Origin: a virus
Length of the DNA: 64,000 nucleotides
Direction: 5' to 3' (one strand)
Virus record (IMG/VR): IMGVR_UViG_3300049893_003686
The first letter of the stretch is position 1, and each line of letters starts with the position of its first letter. The notes beneath the pieces are model-generated. The model worked only from the letters and a program-made list of their open reading frames with translations. It was not told the DNA's origin and made no database searches. Positions 1 through 57,381 of this stretch are shown in pieces. The translations under genes were made by a program, and so were the position numbers.

Positions 1-160
1 GGGCTTCTAGGGCTTATAGGGCTTCTAGGGTTTCTTGGGCTTCTGAGGCTTCTGTGGCTTCTTGGGTTTCTGGGGCTTATAGGGCTTCTTGGGTTTCTGT
101 GGTTTCTGGGTTTTCGGTGGTTTATAGAGGTTATGTGGTCTCTATAGTAAGAGGCGGTAG

Positions 161-412
161 ATGATTTCTTATGCTGTAGTTTATTTTTATTCTGGGGCTT
201 CTAGGGCTTCTGGGGCTTCTGGGTCTTATAGGGCTTCTGGGTCTTATAGGGCTTCTTGTGTTTCTAGGGCTTCTTGGATTTCTAGGGTTTCTGGGGTTTC
301 TGTGGCTTCTGTGGTTTCTGGGGCTTCTTGGGCTTCTTGGGCTTCTGGCGCTTCTAGGGCTTCTAGGGTTTCTGGGGTTTCTTGGGTTTCTGGAGTAAGG
401 GGTGGTAGATGA
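161..412 (+). CDS. Candidate small repeat protein (unit A1): N-terminal [10 protein letters not shown] followed by (A/V)-S-(G/R/W) triplets, ending RGGR
   Basis: AAGAGG lies 6 nt upstream of the ATG. The TGA stop overlaps the next ATG (ATGA). Low-complexity sequence, so coding status is unproven. Confidence 0.3.
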
Positions 413-678
413 TTTCTTATGCTGTAGTTTATTTGTATGGCGGGGCTTCTTGGGCCTCTAGGGCTTCTGGGGCTTCTAGGGCTTCTGGCGCTTCTGGGGC
501 TTCTGGGGCTTCTGGGGCTTCTGGGGCTTCTAGGGTTTCTAGGGTTTCTGGGACTTCTAGGGCTTCTTGGGCTTCTTGGGTTTCTAGGGCTTCTGGGGCT
601 TATAGGGTTTCTTGGGCTTCTGGGGCTTCTTGGGCTTCTGGAGGTTGTGCAACCTCTATAGTAAGGGGTAGTAGATGA
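409..678 (+). CDS. Candidate small repeat protein (unit A2)
   Basis: AAGGGG-N6-ATG and ATGA junctions at both ends; same (A/V)-S-(G/R/W) frame as unit A1. Confidence 0.3.
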
Positions 679-971
679 TTTCTTATGCTGTAGTTTATTT
701 TTATTCTGGGGCTTCTGGGGCTTCTTTGGTTTCTGGGGCTTCTAGGGCTTCTTGGATTTCTGGGGCTTCTAGGGCTTCTAGGGCTTCTAGGGCTTCTAGG
801 GCTTCTAGGATTTCTGAGGCTTCTGTGGCTTCTTGGGTTTCTGGGGCTTCTGGGGTTTCTGGGGCCTCTGGGGCCTCTGGGACTTCTAGGGTTTCTGGGG
901 CTTCTAGGGCTTCTTGGGTGTCTAGGGTTTCTTGGATTTCTAGGGCTTCTAGAGTAAGAGGCGGTAGATGA
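675..971 (+). CDS. Candidate small repeat protein (unit A3)
   Basis: Same architecture as units A1 and A2. The following copy (ATG 968) runs out of repeats and terminates after ~25 codons. Confidence 0.3.
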
Positions 972-1601
972 TTTCTTATGCTGTAGTTTATTTTTATGGT
1001 GAGGTTTCTGACGCTAACTCATATAGTAGGATATAAGGATCTATCTTTGACGCAGTAGCATCTACATCGGGATTACATCTTGATATAGCTGTTCGTGAGC
1101 ATAATTTTAATTTTCGCAAAGATCAATAGTTGCTAATAATATAGTTTATGATAAATAGCCTAAGTCTAATCCTTAATGTCTATCTATATAGAGATTTGCA
1201 ACAAACCTTATATCAAGGTCCGCAGTCAGTGGGTTATCGGTGTTTATGATTCTTCCCACTACATCATATAGACCTTATTACCAATATAGCTTAATTTAAA
1301 GCCCCGGATTGTAACTGGGAGATGCGAGCTTATATGCTCGCTATTGGTATTTGTAATTTACATATAATCGTATGCCAGTCGCACATACATCTGCTTATAG
1401 CACTTCGATATAATTATAGTTTATTCTGCTTAGAGGGCCATGTGATTACTTCATCACAGGCAGTCTAAAGCGATTTAAACCTTCTTGAAGAAAGCAATTA
1501 TATACACTAGAAAAATACCTAACCTAGATTAAGGAAGGGTAATTCCGTCAGAGGCAATTTTCTACTGCTATCGTATATGATTTTTATATCTCTACACTAG
1601 A

Positions 1602-1715
1602 AGGTTAATATCTTAGCGTCCAAGATATTAAATACTTTTGCGAAAAAACCGATCTATAAGATCACTGAGATCGCGGGGGAAAATATTCTTAGACAAATGC
1701 ATAGGGCGATCCGAG
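1602..1715 (+). repeat. Direct repeat copy 1 (114 bp) inside the gene-free core
   Basis: Matches 2172-2284 with 3 differences seen (two substitutions and one G indel in ..ATCACTGAGATCGCGGGGGA..). Contains the hairpin AATATCTT-agcgtcc-AAGATATT and the palindrome GATCT-ATA-AGATC. Confidence 0.95.
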
Positions 1716-2171
1716 TCTATACTTACTATTATTTCCTCAAGTAAATATATCCTAAGTACCCTATATAATTCTACGAGTTTATTCGACTAATGAGATTCTT
1801 CTTTTCGCGGCCAATAAATGGCACAGCCAGCTACTAGAAGCGCCTCATATTCGGTATAAACGCATTTTATAATAATAATTCTGAGCAACCCGCATAGGCC
1901 ATCTGGGCACCCATTTGGGTCTACTGTAATCATGTATATTTATAAGATTTTATCAAAGCCACTAGTGTGTGAAAAATATATTTGGGTTAATAAATTACTA
2001 ATCTACAATATCCTGCGGCAATTTTATAGTAGGCATCGCAGGTTGCAACATTTTCTATCTTGAAGATGGCGATAAGAATCCATTATATAGCGAGCGTTCT
2101 CACCAAGTGGAAATGTGTCACATCACATTAAGACAATCGTATATAGAGACATCCAGCAATAAATACCGCAT

Positions 2172-2284
2172 AGGTTAATATCTTAGCGTCCAAGATATTA
2201 AATACTTTTGCGAAAAAACCGATCTATAAGATAACCGAGATCGCGGGGAAAATATTCTTAGACAAATGCATAGGGCGATCCGAG
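2172..2284 (+). repeat. Direct repeat copy 2 (113 bp) inside the gene-free core
   Basis: See copy 1; same orientation, about 570 bp downstream. Confidence 0.95.
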
Positions 2285-2630
2285 GATTGGATCTAACACT
2301 ACTAGATCTATTCTAATACAATAGATAGTAACTTTAATTCTCTATATGTTAACCATACTCTAAACTTAAGAGTAATTCTAATCTACCAATATCATGCCTT
2401 TGCTATAAGATCTCCGATATCTATCAAAGCTATAAGTGCGTAATAATTTTTATTAGGTTAATACATTATTAACATTAATATAAATAACTGCCTAAATTCT
2501 ACACCCTAAGTCGCATTTCTTCAGATAATTAACTACACATTAACTGTGTGGGCAGCATACAGATGAGTTTGGTAACAGCTAACCCTAAAAACCTATACGA
2601 CATCATAATATAGCTATGGAGAGCGACGAG

Positions 2631-2846
2631 ATGATTTCTTATACGGCAATTTATTGGTATGGTGAAGATTCTAATACTTATGGGGTTTCTAGGGTTTCTG
2701 GGGATTATAGGGCTTCTTGGGCTTCTGGGACTTCTTGGGATTCTGCGGCTTCTAGTGTTTCTAGGGCTTCTAAGGTTTATAGGGCTTCTTGGGTTTCTGG
2801 GGTTTTTTGGGGTTATGTAATCTCCAGAGCAAGGAGTGGTCAATGA
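2631..2846 (+). CDS. Candidate small repeat protein (unit B1)
   Basis: The homologous ATGATTTCT start is at 2631; the ORF track extends it to an upstream ATG at 2616. ATGA junction at 2843-2846. Confidence 0.25.
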   Translation: MISYTAIYWYGEDSNTYGVSRVSGDYRASWASGTSWDSAASSVSRASKVYRASWVSGVFWGYVISRARSGQ

Positions 2847-3031
2847 TCTCTCATGCGACAGTTTATCTTTATGGTGGAGCTTATTGGACTTCTAAGGCTT
2901 CTAAGGCTTCTGGGATTTCTAAGGCCTCTTGGATTTCTAAGGCTTCTGGGGTTTCTAGGGTTTCTATGGCTTCTAGGGCTTCTGGGGGTTATGGGAGCTA
3001 TATAGTCTCCAGAGCAAGAGGTGGTAGATGA
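2843..3031 (+). CDS. Candidate small repeat protein (unit B2)
   Basis: AAGGAG lies 6 nt upstream of ATG 2843. ATGA junctions at both ends. Confidence 0.3.
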
Positions 3032-3279
3032 TTTCTCATGTGGGAGTTTATTTTTATTCTGTGGCTTCTTTGGTTTCTGGGGCTTCTTTGGTTTCTAGGG
3101 CCTCTAGGGCTTCTAGGGCTTCTAGGGCTTCTGTGGCTTCTGGGGCTTCTGGGGCTTTTAGGATTTCTGGGGTTTCTGGGGCTTCTTTGGTTTCTATGAC
3201 TTCTGGGGTTTCTGGGGCTTCTGGGGTTTCTGGGGCTTCTGGGGTTTCTGGGGTTTCTGGGGCAAGAGGTGGCAGATGA
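3028..3279 (+). CDS. Candidate small repeat protein (unit B3)
   Basis: AAGAGG-N6-ATG and ATGA junctions at both ends. Confidence 0.3.
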
Positions 3280-3551
3280 TTTCTCATGTGGGAGTTTATT
3301 TTTATTCTGGGGCTTCTTGGGTTTCTTGGGTTTCTGGGGTTTCTGTGACTTCTTGGGTTTCTAGGGTTTCTGGGGTTTCTGGGGTTTCTGTGACTTCTGG
3401 GGTTTCTGGGGTTTCTGGGGCTTCTGGGGTTTCTAGGGCTTCTAAGGCCTCTATGGTTTCTGGGGCAAGAGGTGGTAGATTATTTCTCATGTGGGAGTTT
3501 ATTGGTACGGCGAGGTTACTGGAGCGGACCTATTCGTATAGGAATAGATAA
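3276..3551 (+). CDS. Candidate small repeat protein (unit B4), reading through a decayed fifth linker
   Basis: AAGAGG-N6-ATG. The next junction is mutated (AGATTA instead of AGATGA), so the ORF continues to 3551. Confidence 0.25.
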
Positions 3552-3589
3552 TTTAAGTATAAAGCAATATACTTCACATAGAGAGTGAC

Positions 3590-4078
3590 ATGAATATCTT
3601 CCTAGTAGATACTGATCCAATTAAAGCAGCACAAGCGTTATGCGACAAACATTGTATCAAAATGATTCTAGAAACAGCACAATTGCTATCAACATCAGTA
3701 TACCTCACAAAAGGAGATTTAACAGGGCTGTATAAGCCAACCCATTTAGCACATCCATGTACTAAGTGGGCCTCAGAGTCTAAGATTAATTTTAATTGGC
3801 TAAAGAACCATGGATTAGGCCTTCTGTCGGAATATACGTTTCGATATCGAAAAGAGCATAAGTCAACACAGATAATATTAAAATGCACTAATGAATCTCT
3901 ACCAGACTTACCTGCTACAGATTTTGTTCAGGTAATGCCAGAGGTATATAGACGACCAGATCCTACAGAAGCATATAGGGCTTATTATAATAGTGCAAAG
4001 TATATGATGGCCACGTGGACAAGGCGGCAGCCTCCAGAATGGTGGTGCTCACAATTGTACGTAGAAAAGCACGAATAA
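3590..4078 (+). CDS. Conserved hypothetical protein
   Basis: 162-aa ORF and the first gene after the repeat region. The motifs DKHCIKMILETAQLLS and HPCTKWA recall a widespread phage/bacterial family that I cannot name with certainty. Confidence 0.7.
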   Translation: MNIFLVDTDPIKAAQALCDKHCIKMILETAQLLSTSVYLTKGDLTGLYKPTHLAHPCTKWASESKINFNWLKNHGLGLLSEYTFRYRKEHKSTQIILKCTNESLPDLPATDFVQVMPEVYRRPDPTEAYRAYYNSAKYMMATWTRRQPPEWWCSQLYVEKHE

Positions 4079-4114
4079 AGATAATCTATTATAAAATAAT
4101 ATTGAGGAGAATAG

Positions 4115-4477
4115 ATGCAGCCATCAGATATGATAATTAATCAAAAAGACTGCAGAGGGCTATTCGAGCAGCTGATCACATCGCAACCCTATGCTTTGAT
4201 AGATAAAATAAAGCTAGGTGAATTATCCAATGCGCGTATGGGAGAAGCGCTGGAGATAATAGGTCAGCTTAATTACGAATTGATACATGATATCTATGCC
4301 AATTTAGTAAATCATCATAACTCATTGGTACGTGGTGGCATAGTTTGCGGACTAGCCCTACATTCAGAAAATGTACAAGCTAGGCAATTACTTAAACAGA
4401 TGGCTGACTCAGATCCATCAGAGACAATACGATACGCTGCCGGACAAATATATTTCGAACATAGGTCAGTAAAATGA
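4115..4477 (+). CDS. Hypothetical protein, possibly HEAT-like repeats
   Basis: GAGGAG SD upstream. The helical-repeat-like C-terminus (..VQARQLLKQMADSDPSETIRYAAGQ..) is weak evidence. Confidence 0.6.
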   Translation: MQPSDMIINQKDCRGLFEQLITSQPYALIDKIKLGELSNARMGEALEIIGQLNYELIHDIYANLVNHHNSLVRGGIVCGLALHSENVQARQLLKQMADSDPSETIRYAAGQIYFEHRSVK

Positions 4478-4965
4478 TGCAGCATGTAGTTATCCATGAA
4501 GGGTCACTCCTTGATTCTAAGGATCAGTACTTGGCCCACCAGACAAACTGCATTTCAAAAAGAGCAGCACACCTAGCAGATGAGGTATTTGCTAAATATC
4601 CATATGCGAACGTTTATTCCAAACGCACATCTCAGGATGAACCAGGAACAATCATCATTAGCGGTAACGGCAACGATGAAAGATACGTCATCAATATGAT
4701 GGGGCAGGTCTATCCAGGCAAACCTAAGTATAGCGAGAGTGCCACTGATGGGTACAGAGCCCGATATAGATATTTTTTTCTATGCCTAAAAGCTATATCT
4801 AAAATAGATAATTTGCAAAGTATTGCATTTCCATGGCAGATAGGCTGTGGCGCAGCAGGTGGCAACTGGGAAGATTACTATAATTTACTAAATAAATTCG
4901 CGAAACATTTATCAGGTAAAGTAGAAGTAAAGATATATAGACTCCCAGATGATGATCATATATAA
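4474..4965 (+). CDS. Macro-domain protein (ADP-ribose binding/hydrolase, Poa1p/TARG1-like)
   Basis: ATGA overlap with the upstream gene. Motifs YLAHQTNC and IAFPWQIGCGAAGGNW resemble the macro-domain phosphate-binding loops. Confidence 0.65.
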   Translation: MMQHVVIHEGSLLDSKDQYLAHQTNCISKRAAHLADEVFAKYPYANVYSKRTSQDEPGTIIISGNGNDERYVINMMGQVYPGKPKYSESATDGYRARYRYFFLCLKAISKIDNLQSIAFPWQIGCGAAGGNWEDYYNLLNKFAKHLSGKVEVKIYRLPDDDHI

Positions 4966-4988
4966 TTTGTTATAACAAAGGTAAATTC

Positions 4989-5387
4989 ATGAAACAAATG
5001 GCAAGTCCTGGATGGAAGAACAAATCAGGTTACTATATCATAGAAAGAGAGGAATGGCGAGCAGAAATATATCCAAGCTCCAATAATTATGCCTGGCGTC
5101 TAGATCGTGCAGGATATACCCGATTCTCGGGAGAAGATAATAATTTAGAAGAGATTAAAAGAAATTTAGAATTAATACTAGGATATAGATTTCTTGTTAA
5201 AGAAGAGATTGTTATTGATAAATATTGCACATGTGGCGGATGCGCAAGATTTACTGGTCGATGGCAAGTACTTGACTGTATGGGCGAGGAAGAGCCGATC
5301 TTTCAGAGTGAGGATGATGCATTAGCTTGGATAGCCAATCAAGACATGAAGCACGAAATAGCTAATCTGGCACACAAAATGCAATAA
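4989..5387 (+). CDS. Hypothetical protein
   Basis: 132-aa ORF with AAGG upstream of the ATG and no recognised motif. Confidence 0.65.
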   Translation: MKQMASPGWKNKSGYYIIEREEWRAEIYPSSNNYAWRLDRAGYTRFSGEDNNLEEIKRNLELILGYRFLVKEEIVIDKYCTCGGCARFTGRWQVLDCMGEEEPIFQSEDDALAWIANQDMKHEIANLAHKMQ

Positions 5388-5457
5388 TCTGTACATGTGA
5401 TACTCATATTAGCTTAACTTAATATTTGCATATCAGGATATATGTGGAGAACATAAC

Positions 5458-5697
5458 ATGTTATTTACGATAGGAAATAGAGAATTTGAATTTGCTAGAC
5501 AAACTTCTGAAATAGGCAAGCTCTTCTGTGGTATGTATAATACCGAGACTGATGCGTATATAGGGGTACATTTCTTTGTATCAAAACCGACTCATAAGTA
5601 TTGGGGATTTCAGCAAGATGAGTTGGGCGGAACTTTAATGAAGCAATTTGGATTAGGTCCAATAGCATTATTTGTGTGGGTGGCATATGGCGAATAA
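5458..5697 (+). CDS. Hypothetical protein
   Basis: 79-aa ORF with GGAGAA upstream. Confidence 0.55.
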   Translation: MLFTIGNREFEFARQTSEIGKLFCGMYNTETDAYIGVHFFVSKPTHKYWGFQQDELGGTLMKQFGLGPIALFVWVAYGE

Positions 5698-5863
5698 AAA
5701 TAGCTTGAGAGTAGCACATAAAGGGTTGGCCTATCATGAAATGACTTCAGATGTTTATGATGGTCCAAGATCTATAAGTGACCGAAAATGGTGGAAGCGA
5801 TATGCCGCGAAGCGCAAAAGACGCACTGAAGATAATGAAATTGTAGAACAGATTGGCAAGTAA
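5687..5863 (+). CDS. Hypothetical small basic protein
   Basis: ATG at 5687 overlaps the upstream gene by 11 nt; the track's alternative start is 5672. An 8-bp hairpin (GTCTCTTA-atac-TAAGAGAC, 5877-5896) follows. Confidence 0.45.
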   Translation: MANKNSLRVAHKGLAYHEMTSDVYDGPRSISDRKWWKRYAAKRKRRTEDNEIVEQIGK

Positions 5864-6133
5864 GACCTGTACCACAAGTCTCTTAATACTAAGAGACGTA
5901 TGATAGAGAAATTAGGATGGATATAAATAAACGAAATTTAGAGGATGCTGGCGATCACATAGAAGCACACTTTTTGCTCAGAGCGTGGTTATCACGAACT
6001 ATGGTAAGTATTATATATGCTTAGGCTATACTGACAGTTAATTATAGTAATTATTATTGCCTTTACTTACCTCGTATAACGCATCATCAGAGATAATACG
6101 CGGTAACTGAAATCTTATTACTAGAGATTTTAT

Positions 6134-7243
6134 ATGCATGATGAAATCAATGTTGGAGTTGTAATCGGAAGATTCCAACCTCTACACATCTGTCACCTCT
6201 CAGAGGCGATCTTGCCCGCCCTAGATGAATCAGACACATTAATCATTCTTCTCGGATCATCGCACAGACCAAGTACACCTAAAAATCCATGGACGGACTC
6301 TGATAGGGCGGAGATGATTCATCTTGGCCTAAAAGACGCAGGGATGACCGTAGAGGCATATGGAAATTGGTTATTAAAGATAGGTGCGAGTGACACTACT
6401 CAAAAGACGGTATATATTGTTCCAATAAGAGACTTTGCTTATTCAGATATTCAGTGGCAGATGCAAGTGCAGGAGAAAGTAAGAGAGATCGTTTCATCCT
6501 GCTCAAATCTCGATAGCAAATATGAATCTGCAAAAATTAATCTATTTGGAGTAGATCGTGATGATACCACATTCTACCTTAAATTATTTCCTCAATGGAT
6601 AGATAAAACAACTAAGCGGGATAAGAGCTCCGATCAAGTTAAGGGCACAATGTGCAGAGAGCTGATTTTTGCTAGCGGCGCAAAAGGTCATGGGGAGTGG
6701 GGAAAGTACTTGTCACCCCAGGTATCAGAATTCATATTAAATTGGTGTAACTCAATATCATTTTCATCACTTAAAGAAGAGTTTGATTTTCTCAAACGAT
6801 ATAAGGCAGACTTATCTGGATATAAATATCCAATTATATTTCAAACAGTAGATAATATTATTCTATATAAGGGGCACGTCTTCTTGCTAAATAGGAGGAG
6901 TTTCCCTGGAAAAGGATTGCTATCTTTACCGGGCGGGTTTATAGATTCCAGTCTAACTCTACTTCAGAGCGCGCTATCTATAGCCAAAGAGAAAAGTAAA
7001 CTTAATCTTAAATTAGACTGGCTTGTAGCAAGCAAGACTTTCGATTATCCCGGACGCTCACTAAGAGGCAGGACTATCACTACAGCATTTCTCTGGAAAT
7101 TACCCGAGACAATGAATGTAATAGTTGCAGGGGCAAATAAAGAACACTGGTATCAGCTATGCGATATCATGAAAATGAGTGATTTCTTATATGAAGATCA
7201 CTATGATATCATAATTGATATGCTACAGCTTAGCAAGACATAA
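6134..7243 (+). CDS. Bifunctional-type nicotinamide-nucleotide adenylyltransferase (NMNAT) with a C-terminal Nudix-like domain
   Basis: The N-terminal GRFQPLHICH matches the cytidylyltransferase (H/T)xGH motif of NadR/NadM-type NMNAT. The C-terminal LPGGFIDSS..LSIAKEKSKL is a degenerate Nudix box that has lost the REx2EE acidic residues. Confidence 0.8.
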   Translation: MHDEINVGVVIGRFQPLHICHLSEAILPALDESDTLIILLGSSHRPSTPKNPWTDSDRAEMIHLGLKDAGMTVEAYGNWLLKIGASDTTQKTVYIVPIRDFAYSDIQWQMQVQEKVREIVSSCSNLDSKYESAKINLFGVDRDDTTFYLKLFPQWIDKTTKRDKSSDQVKGTMCRELIFASGAKGHGEWGKYLSPQVSEFILNWCNSISFSSLKEEFDFLKRYKADLSGYKYPIIFQTVDNIILYKGHVFLLNRRSFPGKGLLSLPGGFIDSSLTLLQSALSIAKEKSKLNLKLDWLVASKTFDYPGRSLRGRTITTAFLWKLPETMNVIVAGANKEHWYQLCDIMKMSDFLYEDHYDIIIDMLQLSKT

Positions 7244-7286
7244 GTCGATATACGACGCATATAACTTATTTTCGGAGGAATATACC

Positions 7287-8768
7287 ATGGAATTTTCAAA
7301 ATTTCTACATACTGACAGTTATAAATTAGCTCACTTCGAGCAATATCCAGCAGCCAAGAAGATGGTTGCTTATGGTGAATTTCGCAAGCCGTATCCTAAT
7401 ATTAAAGATGAGCGAATTGTTGTATACGGCATACAGTATTTAGTAGATAAATTTTTAAACAAACAGTGGACGGTAGAAGAACTTAATGCCGCATCACAAT
7501 TTGCCAGCAAACATAATGCTGGTTTAAAAGAATACCCATTTCCTCGGAAATTATTTACCGACATGATTGCTGAAAATAACGGATACTTTCCAGTTAAGGT
7601 AGAGGCTGTTCCGGACGGAACAGTGGTATACCCACATGTGCCAGTGTATCAGATTACAGCAGAGGGGAAGTATTCGGGTCTGGTAACATACATCGAAAGT
7701 TTTCTGTCGCACTTATGGTATTCAACTACTGTAGCAACTCTTTCACGACATACTAAAACACTTATCAAAAATGCGTTCGATCTTACTGTAGATGATAATA
7801 TGAGGTGGTTACTTGGGAGTCGATTGCATGATTTTGGTTATCGAGGCTGTGCGTCTGATGAGCAGGCTATGATCGGAGGTGCCGCACACCTACTTAATTT
7901 TGATGGTACAGATACGATGCTAGCTGCTGCATATGCACACTATCAAAATAATGGAGAAGAATTTGCACAAAGTATTCCAGCTACAGAGCATTCGGTAATG
8001 ACATCATGGCCATCAGAAGTTGATGCAGTTCGAAATATGATCCACCACTACGGAGATGGTGTATTTGCCTGTGTAGCTGATAGCTATGACTATAAGCACT
8101 TTCTTCATCATGTATTGCCAGCAGTAGCAGCTGATGTGCAGGCTAAGGGCGGCACAATGGTAATTAGACCAGACTCTGGCGATCCACTTAAATCAGTGAT
8201 AGACGGACTCTATGCTTGTCAAAGATATTTTGGAATATCCTATAATAAAAAGGGATTTAAGGTACTGAACAATAGCGCAATAATTCAAGGTGACGGCATT
8301 AATATAGAGATAGTTGATAACATACTTACTGAGGTTATTAATAATGGATTCAGCGCACAGAACGTAGCCTTCGGCATGGGCGCCGGCCTATTACATAAAC
8401 ATAATAGAGATACTATGAGTTTTGCCACTAAGTTATCATATATTGAATATGCAGATGGGACAAGTAGGAACATTATGAAGGCACCTAAAACGGATCCGGA
8501 GAAGTACTCACTACCTGGTATACTTAAGGTAATTAATGATGACCTATTGAAGGTTGGAACAGAAGAAGATCGTGGTAATAACTTGCTGATAACAGTGTAT
8601 GATGGCAGACCAGTAGATTTTAAAGAGAAATTTTCTAACATCCGCGCTAAGGTAGAACATCAATGGAATCTCTTACCGCCTAAAGTAGAAAACCTATTTA
8701 CAGATAAGTTAAAGATGAAGATAAATGAGACAATCTTTAACTTAAGAAATAGCACGTCCAAATCCTAA
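7287..8768 (+). CDS. nadV: Nicotinamide phosphoribosyltransferase (NAMPT)
   Basis: The N-terminal HTDSYKLAHFEQYP matches the TDSYK signature. CGGAGGAA SD at 7273-7280. The length (~493 aa) and the GYRG and GDG blocks fit NAMPT. The track start at 7215 is probably an upstream extension. Confidence 0.9.
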   Translation: MEFSKFLHTDSYKLAHFEQYPAAKKMVAYGEFRKPYPNIKDERIVVYGIQYLVDKFLNKQWTVEELNAASQFASKHNAGLKEYPFPRKLFTDMIAENNGYFPVKVEAVPDGTVVYPHVPVYQITAEGKYSGLVTYIESFLSHLWYSTTVATLSRHTKTLIKNAFDLTVDDNMRWLLGSRLHDFGYRGCASDEQAMIGGAAHLLNFDGTDTMLAAAYAHYQNNGEEFAQSIPATEHSVMTSWPSEVDAVRNMIHHYGDGVFACVADSYDYKHFLHHVLPAVAADVQAKGGTMVIRPDSGDPLKSVIDGLYACQRYFGISYNKKGFKVLNNSAIIQGDGINIEIVDNILTEVINNGFSAQNVAFGMGAGLLHKHNRDTMSFATKLSYIEYADGTSRNIMKAPKTDPEKYSLPGILKVINDDLLKVGTEEDRGNNLLITVYDGRPVDFKEKFSNIRAKVEHQWNLLPPKVENLFTDKLKMKINETIFNLRNSTSKS

Positions 8769-8812
8769 AATAGTATTTAGGAATAAATTTCACCATCTCA
8801 ATAAAAAATCTT

Positions 8813-9016
8813 ATGATAACAAGATTAAAACAAAGTCTGAATTTGATTTTAAAAAAACTATCACAGGAGCATAAATCTTCTTTAGATTATGATATTCCTG
8901 AGTTAAATACAATATGCTGGAAATCCCCAGCGTATCCAACTCAAATTCATAAAGAAATACAGTTATTTGATAATGATATAATTAAATGGGAGAGGTATTT
9001 CCCAAGAGTGGAGTAG
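8813..9016 (+). CDS. Hypothetical protein
   Basis: 67-aa ORF only. Confidence 0.5.
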   Translation: MITRLKQSLNLILKKLSQEHKSSLDYDIPELNTICWKSPAYPTQIHKEIQLFDNDIIKWERYFPRVE

Positions 9017-9023
9017 AATTAAG

Positions 9024-9149
9024 ATGGCTAATATAATATATAGATTATTGCTGATTATGGCAGTACCAGCATTAATATTTGGATTATTCACTAAATGCTG
9101 GGCACCACTCAATATCTATAGAAAGTGTATACTTGTGAATTTTGAATAA
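9024..9149 (+). CDS. Possible 41-aa membrane peptide
   Basis: ATG 9024, stop 9147-9149. Hydrophobic core LLLIMAVPALIFGLF. Below the ORF-track cutoff. Confidence 0.3.
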   Translation: MANIIYRLLLIMAVPALIFGLFTKCWAPLNIYRKCILVNFE

Positions 9150-9168
9150 AGTTATTAAGGATTAGTAT

Positions 9169-9417
9169 ATGGAAAGAACGCAAATACAAGAAAGGCTCAG
9201 GTTATTAACGGAACGACAGACACTTTTAAGAGAATATTTGATGCGTCCACTGCAAGTGGCTAAAGATAAATCAAAATTATCAATAGTTGATATTAAGAAG
9301 CATCAGGTCTTACCACAACACCTATGGAAAGAAATGCAACTGCAATATTTTAAAACCTCAAAGGAAATTGAAACACTTACTGCTCAAATTGTCGATCACG
9401 GTCAAAATAAAATATGA
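9169..9417 (+). CDS. Hypothetical protein (coiled-coil-like)
   Basis: 82-aa ORF with an ATGA overlap to the next gene. Confidence 0.55.
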   Translation: MERTQIQERLRLLTERQTLLREYLMRPLQVAKDKSKLSIVDIKKHQVLPQHLWKEMQLQYFKTSKEIETLTAQIVDHGQNKI

Positions 9418-9809
9418 TACCGACTACGCTAAATACTTTAGAACAAGCACTTACAACTGGATTTTGGGAAGACCTTTTAGAGGTTTTACTTAAGCTTAAA
9501 GCTGATAAACAAGAATTGCCTAAGCAATTTAGAGGAGTGAAGAATATATATAAGGCTAAGGACCTCAAAGGGCTCTGTTTTGATCGATTAGGTGATGATC
9601 CAGATTGTGAATGGATTTTAGATGATAGACTATGGGGAGTTTTTCAAAAGCATAAAATTACAGGATACTTCGCCCATCTCGATGATAGCACGACTACATA
9701 TATTGGAACTTACTTCATGGAAGGATATGCATATAAAGCAGATGTGCTTCATAAAATGGATATGAATATTGTAGTGCGAGCGGCAGAGGAATTAAAACCT
9801 AAGGTATAA
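9414..9809 (+). CDS. Hypothetical protein
   Basis: 131-aa ORF, translationally coupled to the upstream gene. Confidence 0.6.
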   Translation: MIPTTLNTLEQALTTGFWEDLLEVLLKLKADKQELPKQFRGVKNIYKAKDLKGLCFDRLGDDPDCEWILDDRLWGVFQKHKITGYFAHLDDSTTTYIGTYFMEGYAYKADVLHKMDMNIVVRAAEELKPKV

Positions 9810-9816
9810 TTCATAC

Positions 9817-10827
9817 TTGCGGGAAGCAAAGACACTGATGCTAATTCCATGGAAAACAATACGCTCATTGCTATTTCGTCTAGATGCGGAAGATGCACAT
9901 AGTTTAGCAATTAAATATTTAAAAATATTATCCAAAGCACTCCCAGCTACATCACCAAATATTAGCTCCCCTGTAGAAGTATTCGGCGTACAATTTCCTA
10001 ACCCTTTAGGCTTAGCAGCTGGATTTGATAAAGACGGTGAAGCCATACTTGCCTGGCAAAGACTTGGCTTCGGATTTGTTGAAGCAGGGACAGTAACCGC
10101 ACATCCTCAACAAGGAAATCCTCGTCCGCGTCTAACTAGGATACCAGAGCACTATGCGCTTAAAAATTGTATGGGCTTCAATAATGCCGGAGCCAAGGCC
10201 TTAGGAATTAAGCTGCAAAAGTTACGCGACAAAGAAATAGTAAATATTCCAATAGGAATTAATATTGGAAAATCAAAAATAGTATCAAATGAAGAGGTAA
10301 TACAAGACTATTGCAAGTCGTTCTCATATATAAAAGACGTAGCTGATTATGTCGCAATAAATATCTCAAGCCCAAACACTCCAAGCTTACGAGATCTTCA
10401 GACTGCTAATATGATTAAAAAAATCATGGATGCTTTAATGGAATTAAATCGCAAGCAGGTACCGATACTTATCAAACTTTCTCCAGATTTGGATGATGAT
10501 ACATTAATAAGCTGTGCCATAGGAGCTATTGACTGTGGAGCCCAAGGTCTTATATTAGCAAATACATCTACCTCTACAGGACTGATGCCTAACATGAGCG
10601 GAGGAGTTTCCGGTCAACCTATACGAGAGCGAGCGAATTCCACAATTAAACTCATTAGGACTGCCGTTAGTGATAAGATTCCATTAATTGGAGTTGGAGG
10701 AATAATTGATCATAATGATGCCAACGAGAGGATTAAATCAGGAGCTACGCTTATACAGGCATACACTGGATTTGTTTATGGTGGACCATCGTTTGCAAAA
10801 GACATCATTCGACAATTAGATATATGA
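9817..10827 (+). CDS. pyrD: Dihydroorotate dehydrogenase (quinone), class 2
   Basis: Motifs FPNPLGLAAGFDKDGEA, GFGFVEAGTVT, GNPRPRL and MGFNNAG. The start may be TTG 9817 or ATG 9838. Confidence 0.9.
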   Translation: MREAKTLMLIPWKTIRSLLFRLDAEDAHSLAIKYLKILSKALPATSPNISSPVEVFGVQFPNPLGLAAGFDKDGEAILAWQRLGFGFVEAGTVTAHPQQGNPRPRLTRIPEHYALKNCMGFNNAGAKALGIKLQKLRDKEIVNIPIGINIGKSKIVSNEEVIQDYCKSFSYIKDVADYVAINISSPNTPSLRDLQTANMIKKIMDALMELNRKQVPILIKLSPDLDDDTLISCAIGAIDCGAQGLILANTSTSTGLMPNMSGGVSGQPIRERANSTIKLIRTAVSDKIPLIGVGGIIDHNDANERIKSGATLIQAYTGFVYGGPSFAKDIIRQLDI

Positions 10828-10828
10828 A

Positions 10829-11035
10829 ATGCAGTTCATAGATAAAAATACATACATTGTAATGCTATGGAATATGATACATGGCTGGATACCAGTCACA
10901 AACCCTTTAACTCAAGAGCTAGCAGAAGCCGCATGGCATAGTTTAACGTGTTCAGGCACACTAAATTCCAAATACGAAGACGGCAATTACTTTAAGATCT
11001 TCATACATAGCACTACAGATACCATACAGGATTAA
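10829..11035 (+). CDS. Hypothetical protein
   Basis: 68-aa ORF abutting pyrD. Confidence 0.5.
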   Translation: MQFIDKNTYIVMLWNMIHGWIPVTNPLTQELAEAAWHSLTCSGTLNSKYEDGNYFKIFIHSTTDTIQD

Positions 11036-11039
11036 CAAA

Positions 11040-12137
11040 ATGAAGCTACCGACATTATTTTCTCGTACCTCCAGTGGGGCTATCCAAATATGGGAAGTTG
11101 AAGTAATTGATAATAAACATCGCGTAATATCAGGACAGATTGATGGGCAAAAAGTTCAGTCAGAATGGACTGTGTGCGTATCAAAAAATATCGGAAAAAG
11201 CAATGAGACATCTCCAGCTCAGCAGGCCGAACTAGAAGCAGGAGCTAAGTGGAAGAAGAAATTAGAGTCCGGCTATAAGGAGTCTATAGCCGATATAGAT
11301 CAGGTAGGTTTTATTGAGCCAATGCTAGCCAAATCATTTAGTGATTATGAACACGAGATCAAATATCCTGTGTTTAGTCAGCCTAAGTATGACGGGATTA
11401 GGTGTGTAGCTACAAAAAATGGCCTCAGTAGTAGAGGTGGCAAAAGATTCTCTAGCGTACCTCATATAATGGAGGCACTACGACCAATATTTGATAAATT
11501 CCCGCAGCTAGCTTTTGACGGCGAACTATACTGCGATAAATTTGCTAATGATTTTAATCAAATATGCTCTCTCGTAAAGAAGTCAAAGCCATCTACTCAA
11601 GACCTTAAAAATAGTGCTGAAGCAATAGAGTATTGGGTATATGATATTCCCAATGATGAGATGAACATATTTTCAGACCGATATGAGCTACTAGCCACTT
11701 TATTAAAAGATGCGCCAAAGTGCATTAGGATTGTTCCCACACGAATAGTCTATGATAAGTCCCAATTAGATAACGAATATTCTTCATACCTAGAGTTAGG
11801 ATATGAAGGACAGATGGTTCGACTTAATGGCCCTTATGAGAATAAGAGAAGCAAGTTTCTCTTAAAAAGAAAAGAATTTGTTGATAATGAATATCTGATA
11901 GTTGATATAATTGAGGGCGACGGCAACAAGAGTAATATGGCAGCCTCTATGCTATTGCGAGACTCTACTAGTAAAGAATTTAATTCAAATATTAAAGGTA
12001 ATAGACAATATCTACGCAAACTCTTAATAGACAAGAATAACCTTTTAGGCAAACTGGCAACAGTGAAATATTTTAATTTAACGCCTGATGGTATACCTAG
12101 ATTCCCATATGTGATTGCCATAAGAGATTATGAGTAG
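11040..12137 (+). CDS. ATP-dependent DNA ligase (T7-like size)
   Basis: Motif I KxDG is present as SQPKYDGIRC. The 365-aa length and the EGQMVR and LLKRK blocks resemble adenylation and OB-domain motifs. Confidence 0.9.
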   Translation: MKLPTLFSRTSSGAIQIWEVEVIDNKHRVISGQIDGQKVQSEWTVCVSKNIGKSNETSPAQQAELEAGAKWKKKLESGYKESIADIDQVGFIEPMLAKSFSDYEHEIKYPVFSQPKYDGIRCVATKNGLSSRGGKRFSSVPHIMEALRPIFDKFPQLAFDGELYCDKFANDFNQICSLVKKSKPSTQDLKNSAEAIEYWVYDIPNDEMNIFSDRYELLATLLKDAPKCIRIVPTRIVYDKSQLDNEYSSYLELGYEGQMVRLNGPYENKRSKFLLKRKEFVDNEYLIVDIIEGDGNKSNMAASMLLRDSTSKEFNSNIKGNRQYLRKLLIDKNNLLGKLATVKYFNLTPDGIPRFPYVIAIRDYE

Positions 12138-12161
12138 AGATATTACAATATAGGAGCGGCA

Positions 12162-13163
12162 GTGACTTTAAATAGTGATTGGCAAATGGCCAAAGTGACA
12201 GACCCTAATATAATAAATTTGGCTGTAGGGGAACCATACTTCCTGCAAAATGCATTGCGACAAAGTAATATTCTAGATAAATGTACTGTACGACTATCTG
12301 GTTTAGAGTACCCACCTTTTGGAGGAGAACCTAAATTAATTGAAGCTATCAAACGGTTGCCTAACTTCGGTGACTATAAGCATGTAGTAATTACTAATGG
12401 GGCAAAGCAGGCCATCTCAGCAGCACTGTATGCTGCAACTGAAGTTAGGCATGCCAAGCGACTCGTACATAGTGCCCCATACTGGCCGTCGTACCCAACT
12501 CTAGCATATCAATGTGGACTTCAGTTCTCTGAAATAGGGAGTGGGTTAGATACGGTAGTTGCCATAACATCGCCAAATAATCCAGATGGAATGCAGGTAT
12601 CGGAACAGAAGTGTTATATTTGGGACGCAGCATATGCGTCTCCTCTATATGGATATAAGGGGGATCATCCGACTGCTGAAGTAGCTATAGTAAGCCTAGC
12701 TAAGTCTTTAGGCATATCAGGGTTACGTATAGGAGCAGCACTTACAAATGATGATGTGCTGGCAAAGTACATGGCATATTTCGTTGAAATATCAACTAGC
12801 GGAGTATCTACAACAGCACAAGAGCAGTGTACAATGCTCATCAAGCATATACTTTCAGATGGAAGTGACGAATTCGCTTCAGTTATTGAGCGCGCTAGAA
12901 GCACACTATCGAACAATCGCAGCTTATTTCGTCAAGTATTATTACCGATTTGTGATGAGGCCAAATTTTCTCACGGTATGTTTGCCTGGTTTAAGCCCAA
13001 TAATAAAGTTGAATTCTCAAATATACTTGAGCATGCAGGAGTTAGGGTAGTAGATGGAGGGGCCTGCGGCGTTCAGGGATGGTTTAGAATGAGTTTAGGA
13101 CTGGATATAAATGCATTTACTGCAGCGATAGAAGCGATATCAACACATATATCAGATCAATAA
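12162..13163 (+). CDS. PLP-dependent aminotransferase, class I/II
   Basis: NLAVGEP, ITSPNNPDG, and SLAKSLGISGLRIGA (the PLP-lysine motif S-x-x-K..G-x-R-x-G). GTG start at 12162 or ATG at 12186. Confidence 0.8.
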   Translation: MTLNSDWQMAKVTDPNIINLAVGEPYFLQNALRQSNILDKCTVRLSGLEYPPFGGEPKLIEAIKRLPNFGDYKHVVITNGAKQAISAALYAATEVRHAKRLVHSAPYWPSYPTLAYQCGLQFSEIGSGLDTVVAITSPNNPDGMQVSEQKCYIWDAAYASPLYGYKGDHPTAEVAIVSLAKSLGISGLRIGAALTNDDVLAKYMAYFVEISTSGVSTTAQEQCTMLIKHILSDGSDEFASVIERARSTLSNNRSLFRQVLLPICDEAKFSHGMFAWFKPNNKVEFSNILEHAGVRVVDGGACGVQGWFRMSLGLDINAFTAAIEAISTHISDQ

Positions 13164-13186
13164 AATTCATAATATTAGGAGATAAT

Positions 13187-13396
13187 ATGCCGTTATTTGA
13201 TTACAAATGTAAGTTATGTAATAGTAAAACAGAGTATCTACTCAAAAATAGCGATGAGATTCCCTATATATGCGAGAATTGTGGGGCAGTATTATCATTA
13301 GTTAAAGAGATATCTAGAAGCACATTTGCATTAAAGGGCTCTGGATGGTATAAGGACCTCTATGGAAATAAATCAGAGACGTCATCAAGTAATTAA
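13187..13396 (+). CDS. FmdB-family zinc-ribbon protein
   Basis: MPLFDYKCKLC..CENCG follows the CxxC..CxxC pattern typical of this family. AGGAG SD. Confidence 0.7.
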   Translation: MPLFDYKCKLCNSKTEYLLKNSDEIPYICENCGAVLSLVKEISRSTFALKGSGWYKDLYGNKSETSSSN

Positions 13397-13557
13397 TTAC
13401 ACCAGTGTAGCTAAGCATACATATTAAGATTGATTACTGCATAAGGAAATATGCAGGCTATGCAATCACAAAAGCTGGTTACCAACGAAGCTTTCAGCTC
13501 ACAATATAATAGATGAGTAAAGTATAAAGATTCACTCTCTTCAAGGAAAGATTACAA

Positions 13558-14136
13558 ATGACTATATGGTTCACCAGCGACCTTCATTTCGGACACGCAA
13601 ATATCATCAAATACTGCAAAAGACCCTATTCTAATGTTGATGATATGAATGAAGCTCTAATAGATAATTGGAATAGCATAGTGCAGAAGGATGATATTGT
13701 ATATGTCCTAGGAGATTTTGCATACGGAAGGCACTTTACACCAGATAAAGCAGCGCGTGTGCTACAGAGATTATCAGGGATTAAAGTTCTAATTGCCGGA
13801 AACCATGATGAAGACAACTTAAGATCTTCACAATTTCGCTCTAAGTTCGAAGAGATACATTCATTATTTGAGCTAAAAATTCCACCAAAGCGTGGTGAAC
13901 GACACGGCACTATGATTGTAATGTGCCATTACCCTATGCGCAAATGGAATCAGTCACATAGAGGATCTATTCATCTGTTCGGACATGAGCATGGGTCTTC
14001 GCCTGAAGATAAGGCATCTCGTAGTATGGATGTTGGAGTAGATTGCCATAATTATTACCCAATTTCTTTTGAAGAAGTTTTGGAAAAAATGGAAACTAAG
14101 ACCTGGAAGCCCAAACGAAATAATAATGAGGAATAG
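13558..14136 (+). CDS. Calcineurin-like metallophosphoesterase
   Basis: SDLHFGH, LGDF, GNHD and GHEH motifs in the canonical order. Confidence 0.8.
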   Translation: MTIWFTSDLHFGHANIIKYCKRPYSNVDDMNEALIDNWNSIVQKDDIVYVLGDFAYGRHFTPDKAARVLQRLSGIKVLIAGNHDEDNLRSSQFRSKFEEIHSLFELKIPPKRGERHGTMIVMCHYPMRKWNQSHRGSIHLFGHEHGSSPEDKASRSMDVGVDCHNYYPISFEEVLEKMETKTWKPKRNNNEE

Positions 14137-14627: not shown

Positions 14628-17222
14628 ATGAATCCAGGCAAATATACACTACAAGCACAGTCTCTATTTATTGACAGCCAGCGAATTGCTAAAGCATATC
14701 AGCACCAGGCAATTGAGCCCGAGCATATGCTGAAGGCACTATTGCAAAATAAGCATGTCTGCAGTGCATTAAGCAAATATACTATCATTAGCGAGCTTGA
14801 GCGTAAAATAGATTTAGAACTACATAAGATACCTCAAGTGCAGGCAGTGAATTATTTGTCACCACGATTTCTTAAAATTGCTTCTGCAGCAGAGGTAATC
14901 GCTACAAAAGCAAACGTTAAGACCGACATAGTGCATTTCTTACTAGCTCTTACCGACGCACGTGTAAATACTTCGATGAGCGGAAGAATATTGCGCGATG
15001 CGGGCTTGACCAGAGAGTATATCGAAGGTGGTATGGCAAGAGCTGGTAAGCCAAAGCAGAAAGCAACAACGGACTCTGCAGTTAGCAAATACGCCATTGA
15101 TCTCACTCAGCGCGCTAGGGACGGGAAAATAGACCCTATAATTGGCAGGGACGAGGAGATACGTAGAATCATTCAGGTTCTCTCCCGACGTTCGAAGAAT
15201 AGTCCAATTCTAATAGGCAAACCAGGTGTAGGGAAAAATACAATTATAAATGGGCTTGCACAGCGAATTGCGGCAGGAGATGTCCCATCCCCACTAATAG
15301 ATTGTAGAATCATGGCGCTAGATATGGGAGCGCTGTTGGCCGGAGCATCATTGCGTGGCCAATTCGAAGAGCGCATGAAGGCAGTAATTGCTGAGGTAAA
15401 TCAAGAAGATGAGAATATCATTTTGTTTATCGATGAAATCCATACATTGGTAGGAGCCGGTGGAGAGGGGGCATCTGATGCTAGTCAGATGCTAAAACCC
15501 CCGCTTGCTCGTGGCGAGATTCAGGTACTTGGAGCTACCACACCAGACGAATATCGCAATTCAATCGAGAAAGATAAGGCTTTGGAGCGTAGATTCCAAC
15601 CCATTCTTGTCGAAGAACCATCATATGATGAGACATTGCGAATTTTACGCGGAATAAAGACCAAATATGAAGTTCATCACGGGGTTCGCATCCAAGATGC
15701 TTCCCTATCTGCTGCCATAAAGTTCTCACAACGGTATATATCTGGACGACATCTACCAGATAAAGCCATTGATTTAATTGATGAGGCAGCCTCTAGGTTG
15801 CGGGTGGCAATAGATTCTGTGCCAGATGAGCTTGATAGTGAAAGTAGAAAGCTAACTCAATTAAAGATGGAATTAGCTGCAATTCATGGTGACTCTGGAC
15901 ACGATACGCACGAGCATAAGAGTAGATTGGAGCATCAAATTTCAGAGGCGGAGAAATCAGTATCAGGATTGAAGTCCAGATGGGAATCCGAGGTTAGCCT
16001 TATACAATCAATTAGGGCTATCAAGGAAGGTATAGAAGAGTCTAGCGCTAAGCTAGAATCCGAAACTAGAAGTGGAAATATAAGCAAGGCCTCAGAATTA
16101 AAGTACGGACAACTACAACGTCTAAAGGCAGATTTAGAAGTAACTACACGCGATTTAAAATCACTACAAAAAGATGCCCCGCTTATCAAAGAAGAGGTAG
16201 ATCCTAGCGATATTGCCGGCGTAGTAGGTGACATTACAGGAATTCCAATTGCATCAATGCTAGAGTCCGAAAAGGAAAAGCTGCGCAACATGGAACAGTA
16301 CTTATCATCACGTGTAATTGGACAAAAGGAGGCATTAAAGGCGATATCTCAAGCCATTCGCCGTAGTCGCTCAGGCCTTAATGATCCAAATCGACCAGTA
16401 GGTAGCTTCTTTTTTCTGGGCCCAACAGGTGTCGGGAAAACTGAGTTAGCTAAAGCGCTTACCCAATTTCTCTTTGATGACGAACGATCTATGATTCGCT
16501 TGGATATGAGTGAATTCCAAGAAAAGCATACTGTAGCGCGACTTATCGGAGCTCCTCCAGGATATAAAGGTGCCGATGATGGAGGGCAATTAACTGAAGC
16601 CGTCAGACTTAAACCATACTCAGTCATCCTATTTGACGAAGTAGAAAAAGCGCACCCTGATATATTCAATATATTATTGCAAGTACTTGATGATGGTCGA
16701 CTAACAGATAGTCAGAGTAGGCTCGTAGATTTCAAGAATACGGTTATTATTATGACATCAAATGTAGGTTCGCAGCATCTACTTACAGCTACAGCCAGTG
16801 ATGGCAGTCTGCCTGATGAGGCAAAAAATGCAGCATTCTCCGATCTACGAAAGTTATTTAGACCAGAATTTCTTGGAAGAATTGATGACGTAATCATGTT
16901 TCACGGTCTCACCAGAAATAATATAGAACATATTGCCAACATTCAACTAAAGAAAGTTTCAGGAATGTTGGCGACACGTAAATTAACGATGAATATATCA
17001 GAAGCAGCACTTAAGGCCATAGTAGATGCTGGGTTTGAGCCACAATTCGGAGCACGACCATTAAGAAGAGCAATCCAGCGTTGGCTGCAAGATCCATTAT
17101 CTTCAGCTATTCTTGAAGGGGGCTACACAGAAGGTGACACCGTATCTGTAGATTTAGCAGAGGATGATGAAAATACAGGCCTTATATTTAGGCGTATAAA
17201 CACTAATGTGAAAAGCAACTAA
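14628..17222 (+). CDS. clpB: ClpB-type AAA+ disaggregase
   Basis: Clp N-domain, two Walker A loops (GKPGVGKN and GPTGVGKT), a long coiled-coil middle domain between them, and 864 aa. Confidence 0.95.
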   Translation: MNPGKYTLQAQSLFIDSQRIAKAYQHQAIEPEHMLKALLQNKHVCSALSKYTIISELERKIDLELHKIPQVQAVNYLSPRFLKIASAAEVIATKANVKTDIVHFLLALTDARVNTSMSGRILRDAGLTREYIEGGMARAGKPKQKATTDSAVSKYAIDLTQRARDGKIDPIIGRDEEIRRIIQVLSRRSKNSPILIGKPGVGKNTIINGLAQRIAAGDVPSPLIDCRIMALDMGALLAGASLRGQFEERMKAVIAEVNQEDENIILFIDEIHTLVGAGGEGASDASQMLKPPLARGEIQVLGATTPDEYRNSIEKDKALERRFQPILVEEPSYDETLRILRGIKTKYEVHHGVRIQDASLSAAIKFSQRYISGRHLPDKAIDLIDEAASRLRVAIDSVPDELDSESRKLTQLKMELAAIHGDSGHDTHEHKSRLEHQISEAEKSVSGLKSRWESEVSLIQSIRAIKEGIEESSAKLESETRSGNISKASELKYGQLQRLKADLEVTTRDLKSLQKDAPLIKEEVDPSDIAGVVGDITGIPIASMLESEKEKLRNMEQYLSSRVIGQKEALKAISQAIRRSRSGLNDPNRPVGSFFFLGPTGVGKTELAKALTQFLFDDERSMIRLDMSEFQEKHTVARLIGAPPGYKGADDGGQLTEAVRLKPYSVILFDEVEKAHPDIFNILLQVLDDGRLTDSQSRLVDFKNTVIIMTSNVGSQHLLTATASDGSLPDEAKNAAFSDLRKLFRPEFLGRIDDVIMFHGLTRNNIEHIANIQLKKVSGMLATRKLTMNISEAALKAIVDAGFEPQFGARPLRRAIQRWLQDPLSSAILEGGYTEGDTVSVDLAEDDENTGLIFRRINTNVKSN

Positions 17223-25567: not shown

Positions 25568-25643
25568 GCGCCTGTAGCTCAGCGGATAGAGTACTTGTCT
25601 TCTAAATAAGGTGTCGTAGGTTCGAATCCTACCAGGCGCGCCA
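25568..25643 (+). tRNA. tRNA-Arg (anticodon TCT), CCA encoded
   Basis: Cloverleaf read by hand. Acceptor GCGCCTG/CAGGCGC. D arm GCTC-AGCGGATA-GAGT. Anticodon arm CTTGT-CTTCTAA-ATAAG. Variable loop GTGTC. T arm GTAGG-TTCGAAT-CCTAC. Discriminator G followed by CCA. Confidence 0.9.
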
Positions 25644-28430: not shown

Positions 28431-28510
28431 GAGAATTAATCTAGATATAAGGTCACATTAACTATAACTATAGCGTCATGCTGGCGTATATAGGAATAAT
28501 CGGAGAAAAG

Positions 28511-56205: not shown

Positions 56206-56208
56206 TAT

Positions 56209-57372: not shown

Positions 57373-57381
57373 GGTGTATAC

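Follow-up and report, generated by a model that had tools for sequence, protein, structure and literature searches.

Tandem small open reading frames built on a 9-nucleotide repeat probably account for two nested repeat arrays in the genome of an uncultured phage

The viral record IMGVR_UViG_3300049893_003686 was analysed here over a stretch of 64,000 nucleotides (the window, numbered from its first letter), which opens with two arrays of 9-bp repeat units, array A at 1–1000 and array B at 2616–3551, separated by a core of about 1.6 kb. We propose, with a probability that we put at roughly 60%, that one small phage gene is present in this region as two clusters of tandem paralogues, A0 to A3 followed by a terminal stub in array A and B1 to B4 followed by a stub in array B. 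The two clusters are best read as flanking a small island of RNA genes. A sequence-only reading of the same DNA had put forward four candidate roles for this two-level architecture, and a tandem gene family is the sole one of the four that fits; the anatomy of the genes explains both levels of the repeat.

The 9-bp arrays noticed at the start of the window were confirmed by Tandem Repeats Finder, which delimited period-9 stretches at 1–123, 190–950, 2677–2816, 2889–2987 and 3057–3466. We examined 185 units over two contigs, about 150 of them in the window, where they are contiguous. The second (C/T) and seventh (A/G/T) positions of the 9-mer are variable, T-TCT and GG are nearly invariant, and the codon at the first repeat position is, among the 185 units, GGG in 59, AGG in 54 and TGG in 27. 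The runs of 9-mers are interrupted by a linker of approximately 45–59 bp, which is itself the conserved element. Its core, GATGATYTCTYATG, was found nine times when one mismatch at most was allowed, always on the + strand and always within 160–3491, against a chance expectation of 0.19 obtained by shuffling (nine copies were reached in none of 100 shuffles). The linker anchors are located at 161, 409, 675 and 968 in array A, and at 2631, 2843, 3028, 3276 and 3479 in array B. These nine positions had all been listed correctly by the sequence-only reading, but the anchors are not identical as it had assumed, since 2843 reads ATGATCTCT and 3479 reads ATTATTTCT. The spacings between them (248, 266 and 293 bp in array A; 212, 185, 248 and 203 bp in array B) are all of the form 9k+5, as that reading had also observed.

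Read from its ATG, each macro-unit is an open frame of 62–98 codons on the + strand, and the 9-nt blocks, counted from this ATG, keep the array units in register from start to stop. The TGA of one unit overlaps the ATG of the following one as a 4-nt ATGA, and a Shine-Dalgarno (SD)-like sequence (AAGAGG, AAGGGG, AAGGAG or AAAAGG) ends 6 nt 5' of the ATG. This succession of SD, ATG, open frame and stop overlapping the next start is present in all ten intact units of two contigs, the stop being TGA or TAA. The predicted products start with a conserved leader of 12 codons, M-I-S-[HY]-x-x-V-Y-[FWL]-Y-[GS]-G, continue with a body in which GYT-TCT-NGG is read as (Ala/Val)-Ser-(Arg/Gly/Trp), with a variable number of 9-nt units, and finish with a tail, (G-Y-[IV]-x-S)-x-[VA]-R-G-G-R, whose G-Y-[IV]-x-S part is kept in the less homogenised units. 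The SD-like bases double as codons for the C-terminal [VA]-R-G-G-R. The gene length is a multiple of 9 and 4 nt are shared with the next gene, which results in a spacing of 9k+5.

All units lie on the + strand. In array A, the open reading frame (ORF) of A0 is cut by the contig end, and only its 3' part is present (1–164, with a TGA at 162–164). It is followed by A1 (161–412, 83 amino acids), preceded by AAGAGG 6 nt before its ATG and bordered by ATGA at both ends, A2 (409–678, 89 amino acids) and A3 (675–971, 98 amino acids), all in the 9-nt register, and by a terminal stub of 22 codons (968–1036), which keeps the leader and is homologous to the stub of array B. In array B, the divergent first unit, B1, encodes 71 amino acids from the ATG at 2631 (2631–2846), or 76 amino acids from an alternative in-frame ATG at 2616; it was called as a gene on a Logan contig. 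B1 is followed by B2 (2843–3031, 62 amino acids) and B3 (3028–3279, 83 amino acids). The last unit, B4 (3276–3551), is a read-through ORF of 91 amino acids with a mutated junction. A single G-to-T change has converted ATGA into ATTA at 3479–3482, removing at once the stop of B4 and the start of the stub, so that B4 continues through the stub (3479–3541) to a TAA at 3549–3551. The stubs of the two arrays are alike also past the leader (YGEV[ST][DG]A[ND]), and therefore arrays A and B have a common right-hand boundary. The ATG was lost in two of the three stubs compared (those of arrays A and B and that of a related contig, IMGVR_UViG_3300049893_002454).

Considering the 16 members of the family described below, the number of codons, stop included, is divisible by 3 in 14; the exceptions are a unit of the related contig, L2, and the read-through B4, whose codon count is also divisible by 3 when taken to the original stop position. 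The family products have 38–98 amino acids, an isoelectric point of 9.0–12.0 and a net charge of +2 to +12, and are composed of 12–30% serine, 8–15% arginine and 0–7% tryptophan. Units of this type were predicted as coding sequences by two independent gene callers. Bona fide genes of the window also use ATGA or GTGA overlaps (at 4474 and 59456), and a core SD motif was found at 16 of the 41 window gene starts checked. A scan for promoters and terminators gave weak consensus matches only, the "terminators" inside the arrays being artefacts of G-U pairing in the repeat, and searches of the unit proteins against Pfam, PHROGs and PDB gave nothing significant.

We infer that the ORFs are translated, that they are coupled, and that the clusters have grown by slippage and unequal crossing-over. 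Ribosomes ending one copy would re-initiate on the next (translational coupling), and replication slippage, together with unequal recombination, would gain or lose 9-nt units and whole genes. Gain and loss in steps of 9 nt would leave the gene lengths as multiples of 9 and the spacings as 9k+5. Concerted evolution would make the central copies uniform, with decay of the edge copies and stubs.

The family was found in four large-phage contigs, with a total of approximately 16 small ORFs among some 15 billion predicted proteins. The database search with linker and 9-mer that the sequence-only reading had suggested was performed with four DNA patterns against IMG/VR, and yielded one true relative, IMGVR_UViG_3300049893_002454; the remaining matches were due to chance or to PEAPE/KKP linkers encoded on the opposite strand, and the products themselves have no relative in the three protein databases mentioned above. 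The related array, with three units (65, 75 and 77 amino acids) and a stub, is located about 21.5 kb into a contig of 125 kb, between a gene for an RmlD-like sugar-nucleotide protein and a gene for a DAO-family oxidoreductase. No AT-rich core and no Rfam match were found beside it, and the 21 kb around it have nothing else in common with the window. In the DAO-family gene 3' of this array (9913–10040 of the fetched piece), the Pfam DAO domain is preceded by 12 residues, MMCNHVVVECGP, and begins only at residue 13. These 12 residues are similar to the unit leader MMSHAVVYWYGG and come after an S-G-D-R-stop/ATGA junction. From these similarities, the neighbouring gene appears to have received the translation-start module of the units as a graft.

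At the protein level, only six further members were recovered by a profile search over 5.8 billion cluster representatives and by an exhaustive HMMER search over 1.84 billion representatives, the other matches being unrelated low-complexity proteins. Five of the six predicted proteins (P0001, P0002, P0006, P0025 and P0027) are encoded on one 47.6-kb contig of the Joint Genome Institute (JGI) and the sixth, P0010, on a JGI contig of 18 kb. The leader is common to all six, and the C-terminus is RGGR or RGDR in each of them except P0027 (…EARSVR). Additional scans were negative: a protein-pattern scan of metagenomes gave 48 candidates, none of them confirmed, a DNA-pattern scan gave 43 loci, none of them related, and a scan of GTDB genomes gave 15 chance matches and no clue to a prophage or a host. 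The 34 IMG/VR loci reached through the neighbouring Pyr_excise gene (30–60% identity) share that gene only, none of them with a comparable 9-bp array. A blastn search of window positions 1–8000 against GenBank phages returned one spurious repeat match, to BK070126.1 (Helicobacter heilmannii prophage, 1501–1705 of the locus), in which the run of 9-mers lies within a large hypothetical protein of the opposite strand. A similar 9-mer, when found elsewhere, commonly serves as a minus-strand linker of the P-E-A type.

The sequence evidence makes it likely that the units are coding. In the leaders of the 16 members, amino acid replacements have a mean BLOSUM62 score of +0.54, against −0.51 for random one-step changes, and the observed score was attained in 354 of 20,000 randomisations (P ~0.018). 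Among the six frames through the linker, the one starting with M-I-S has the most conservative replacements. The + strand frame that reads G-L-L has no consistent start and runs into ATG-CTG-TAG in array A. In unit L2 of IMGVR_UViG_3300049893_002454, insertions of +1 and +2 in G runs, about 10 nt apart, break the 9-nt register and restore the reading frame, which is weak evidence alone, such a pairing having a chance of about one in three.

Several observations weigh against the units being a family of protein-coding genes. Within the repeats, variation is lowest at the third codon positions (1.5–2.0 bits) and is seen at the first and second, which is the reverse of the pattern left by ordinary purifying selection. 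The repeats employ GGG, AGG and TCT, which belong to the minority codons of this genome (14%, 14% and 23%, respectively), and C at the seventh position, which would give CGG, also an arginine codon, is present in none of the 185 units. In the leader, the entropy by codon position is flat (4.8, 5.1 and 5.1), with a small excess of synonymous changes (0.19 vs 0.13–0.15). Four of the six frames are free of stops by construction, so that little can be concluded from the open frames of the repeat body. AlphaFold gave a predicted local distance difference test score of 45.6 for a unit product, a low value that is compatible with disorder and equally with a sequence that is not a protein, and the protein function that we propose below is guessed from composition only. 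Finally, a close relative of this phage, IMGVR_UViG_3300043177_000268 (142 kb), is collinear with the window over 56.4–64.0 kb (60–83% amino acid identity), and none of the four array and linker patterns matched it; the arrays are thus accessory, or lie outside that contig.

Several of these observations would be expected if the arrays were a non-coding satellite acting at the DNA or RNA level (a G-quadruplex or protein-binding array, an RNA sponge or a structured leader), with the ORFs incidental. Such a satellite would account for the conservation of the third codon positions, with T-TCT and GG nearly invariant, for repeat codons that are rare in this genome, for a product without a predicted fold, and for the presence of an identical 9-mer consensus, with the same polymorphic sites, in two contigs otherwise unrelated over the 21 kb compared. 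It is also favoured by the distribution of canonical G3+N1-7 G-quadruplex motifs, since all 70 of those found in the 64 kb fall within the arrays and on the + strand only. Nevertheless, the predicted RNA energies improve little when G-quadruplexes are allowed (from −100.3 to −102.1 and from −90.0 to −100.6 kcal/mol), and with nine consensus positions and a linker divergence of about 15–17% (our own count), an unchanged consensus would be statistically unsurprising. The pattern at the third positions may itself arise in a coding repeat, if slippage homogenises the silent sites while selection keeps the mixture of Arg/Gly/Trp and of Ala/Val. A satellite leaves unexplained the layout from SD and ATG to TGA, the double indel that restores the frame in L2, the conservative replacements in the leader and the specific loss of the ATG in two of three stubs, and we regard it as an unlikely explanation, though one to be taken seriously.

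The sequence-only reading had also considered a genome terminus or packaging region and a replication origin with iterons bracketing an AT-rich core. The window in fact starts within an array, the core has 35% GC and no long ORFs, and direct repeats around an AT-rich stretch are superficially origin-like. Yet the JGI contig has 65,057 bp, and position 1 of the window is thus almost certainly a contig end inside a repeat; of the two options offered earlier for this start, a contig broken at a repeat is by far more probable than a genome end. The right-hand end of the contig is an ordinary gene with no array. A second assembly, represented by Logan contigs of run SRR35532387, is 100% identical to the window over 2255–3229 and 3405–14078 and also breaks inside array B. 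The homologous array of the 125-kb contig is internal, between ordinary genes, without adjoining AT-rich core or RNA genes, and in the window it is RNA genes that occupy the core. With respect to an origin, the cumulative GC skew rises steadily over the window, with its trend unchanged and no inflection (three isolated 1-kb bins are slightly negative), and no initiator gene was found in the ~14 kb annotated downstream, the neighbours of the arrays being repair and NAD genes. In our judgement, GGGYTTCTD is not a DnaA box, and contiguous 9-mers are not spaced iterons, which would be helically phased with a period of 17–22 bp. The arrays most likely represent neither a genome end nor a packaging site nor a replication origin, and we consider these roles very improbable.

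A coding function of the opposite strand, as acidic P-E-[AT] repeat peptides or as part of one large minus-strand protein, is suggested by the many viral 9-mer matches that correspond to PEAPEAPE or KKPKKP linkers in large opposite-strand proteins, such as that of prophage BK070126, and by ATG-started minus-strand ORFs of 62–77 amino acids in B3, B4 and IMGVR_UViG_3300049893_002454. This is hardly credible, as the four linkers of array A all read CATAAG and thus offer no start codon, no SD is present upstream, the macro-period is 2 modulo 3, which rotates the frame and brings any minus-strand frame to a TAG within about two units, and the long ORFs of the window are nearly all on the + strand. 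That the arrays are an assembly artefact, a concern of the sequence-only reading which the mishandling of such repeats by short-read assemblers and the breaks in both assemblies would justify, is just as hard to sustain, given the full identity of the second assembly over 2255–3229, two linkers included, the same nested architecture in an unrelated IMG/VR contig from another sample and the family members predicted on two further JGI contigs. The 9-mer copy numbers in homogeneous stretches may well differ from those in the assembly.

Other candidates were rejected. A clustered regularly interspaced short palindromic repeats (CRISPR) array would require repeats of 24–48 bp and unique spacers of comparable length, and here the unit has 9 bp and no spacers. 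Telomere-like repeats are incompatible with the orientation of the G strand and with the internal copies, and stop-codon recoding with the ordinary long ORFs, which read well in code 11.

The proposed gene clusters can be compared with systems of known type. Translationally coupled clusters of small paralogous phage ORFs joined by ATGA overlaps are similar in having the SD inside the end of the upstream ORF, a 4-nt overlap, the orientation of the surrounding genes and degenerate copies at the edges. They differ from the present clusters in that here each paralogue is a 9-nt minisatellite in register from start to stop, and has no Pfam, PHROG or PDB relative. A second type is that of the bacteriocin precursors with strain-variable Cys-Xaa-Xaa tripeptide repeats (heterocycloanthracin, of the thiazole/oxazole-modified microcin type), which are also small ORFs combining a conserved leader with tripeptide repeats in variable number; here, serine replaces cysteine and multiple coupled copies are present. 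No modifying enzyme (cyclodehydratase, dehydrogenase or other) was observed beside either array, and an array of precursors of ribosomally synthesised and post-translationally modified peptides was rejected because modifying enzymes are missing nearby.

The periodicity of 9 nt and three amino acids is shared with the collagen-like Gly-X-Y repeats of phage tail fibres, and B3 gave weak, sub-threshold matches to Pfam Collagen (17 bits, threshold 27.2) and to PHROG tail fibres at its G-[AV]-S runs. Since Arg or Trp occupies the first position of the repeat about as frequently as Gly, a triple-helix register is impossible, and the products, with only 38–98 amino acids, contain no fibre domains. 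RGG and Arg-Ser-rich low-complexity regions that bind nucleic acids are alike in their basic Ser/Gly/Arg-rich composition, in having no confident predicted fold and in the terminal RGGR; the strict tripeptide period and the frequent Trp and Val set the units apart, and the likeness is one of composition alone. Our tentative guess, which we hold to be clearly less probable than its contrary, is that the products are disordered polycations that would attach, early in infection, to a polyanion such as nucleic acid. The origin iterons of plasmids and phages are likewise short direct repeats that flank an AT-rich stretch, but the units found here are contiguous, 9 bp long and about 150 in number, with neither a skew signal nor an initiator gene in the annotated ~14 kb downstream.

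The AT-rich core between the arrays contains no ORF of at least 60 amino acids, in agreement with the sequence-only reading, which had described it as gene-free. This description does not hold, since we identified a tRNA-like gene at 1280–1349 and a Y-RNA-like stem-loop at 1211–1279, both on the + strand and adjoining each other without a gap. The tRNA-like gene, whose anticodon is UGU (Thr) and whose T-loop is atypical, scored 37.4 bits with the Rfam tRNA model (gathering threshold 29), and ARAGORN detected a tRNA-Thr(UGU) at the same position at lowered thresholds only. The Y-RNA-like stem-loop, which carries GGUCCG, gave sub-threshold Rfam matches: 30.7 bits with RF01656 (the nematode small RNA family ceN72-3_ceN74-2), whose stem-bulge RNAs count as homologues of Y RNAs, and 17 bits with Y_RNA, the gathering threshold being 38 in both cases. 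The predicted fold of the 148-nt stretch is a bulged stem-loop that leads into a cloverleaf (z = −3.1). No match to the Y-RNA-like stem came out of a scan of IMG/VR.

The motif GGUCCGA is the Ro60 contact motif (PMC4201824), and a Ro60/TROVE-vWA protein is encoded in the same genome, at 37853–39460. YrlA RNAs are found within 4 kb of Ro60 and have a tRNA-like module nested inside (PMC4201824). The Y-RNA-like element of the window lies ~36.5 kb from the Ro60 gene, beyond the 4 kb of that study, and its tRNA-like module adjoins the stem and is not nested in it. Processing by RNase P could release the candidate Y-RNA-like stem. Two identical tRNA-like elements of 81 nt are also present on the + strand (25709–25789 and 42249–42329), with a score of 42.1 bits apiece under the Rfam tRNA model and no call by ARAGORN. 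In both, CCA is encoded, the anticodon loop carries CAU, the D-arm is poor and the variable region is long. One of them, which may be a tRNA mimic of the YrlA type, follows the Ro60 gene at a distance of 2.8 kb and shares its strand. A normal tRNA-Arg(UCU) is encoded at 25568–25643.

The core contains, in addition, a direct repeat of 115 bp on the + strand, with copies at 1602–1716 and 2172–2284 (96–100% identical) and an AT-rich hairpin of 10 bp, TTAATATCTT-AGCGTCC-AAGATATTAA. The flanks of the two copies are unrelated and no third copy was found in the window. Folded as RNA, the repeat is no better than shuffles (z = −0.69).

With the RNA genes in view, the arrays might act mainly as nucleic acid, a G-rich (GGGCUUCUN)n RNA or DNA flanking the Y-RNA-like element and the tRNA-like gene. 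Its role would then be that of a decoy or substrate made of structured RNA, or of a G-quadruplex barrier, tied to Ro60/Y-RNA quality control in the phage, and the short ORFs would merely load or clear ribosomes. We consider this scheme improbable.

The remainder of the window encodes nicotinamide-nucleotide enzymes (NMNAT and NAMPT, 6134–8768), a ClpB-like AAA+ protein (14628–17222), DHODH, a DNA ligase, a subtilase and a macro-domain protein. A set of ubiquitin-like conjugation genes (Prok-E2_D, Prok-JAB and ThiF/E1-like) is found in a row within 55495–58239, followed by genes for a dUTPase, a helicase, an AAA ATPase, a D12 methyltransferase and a NUDIX protein. This auxiliary gene content is typical of large uncultured phages; capsid, portal and terminase genes were not identified among the window ORFs checked. 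Another tandem repeat, of 30 bp (periods of 12, 18 and 30, ~4.7 copies, 96% matching), is located at 29140–29282, where it encodes a Gly/Glu-rich repeat inside an ORF of 774 amino acids (28478–30802) with a C-terminal OmpA domain.

The reading of the arrays as tandem small genes turns an exotic-looking two-level repeat element into a testable object, a rare and unannotated family of basic tripeptide-repeat ORFs, in which a minisatellite within the gene, together with ATGA coupling, yields a strictly arithmetic spacing. Such arrays break assemblies and can pass for genome ends. Should the proteins prove real, they would be a new kind of phage polycation, with an activity perhaps tuned by the length variation that slippage produces, and the invariant third codon positions and the confinement of G-quadruplex motifs to the arrays leave room for a role of the RNA or DNA. 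Of greater biological interest than the arrays may be the metazoan-style Y-RNA-like stem, which lies beside a tRNA-like gene in a Ro60-encoding phage.

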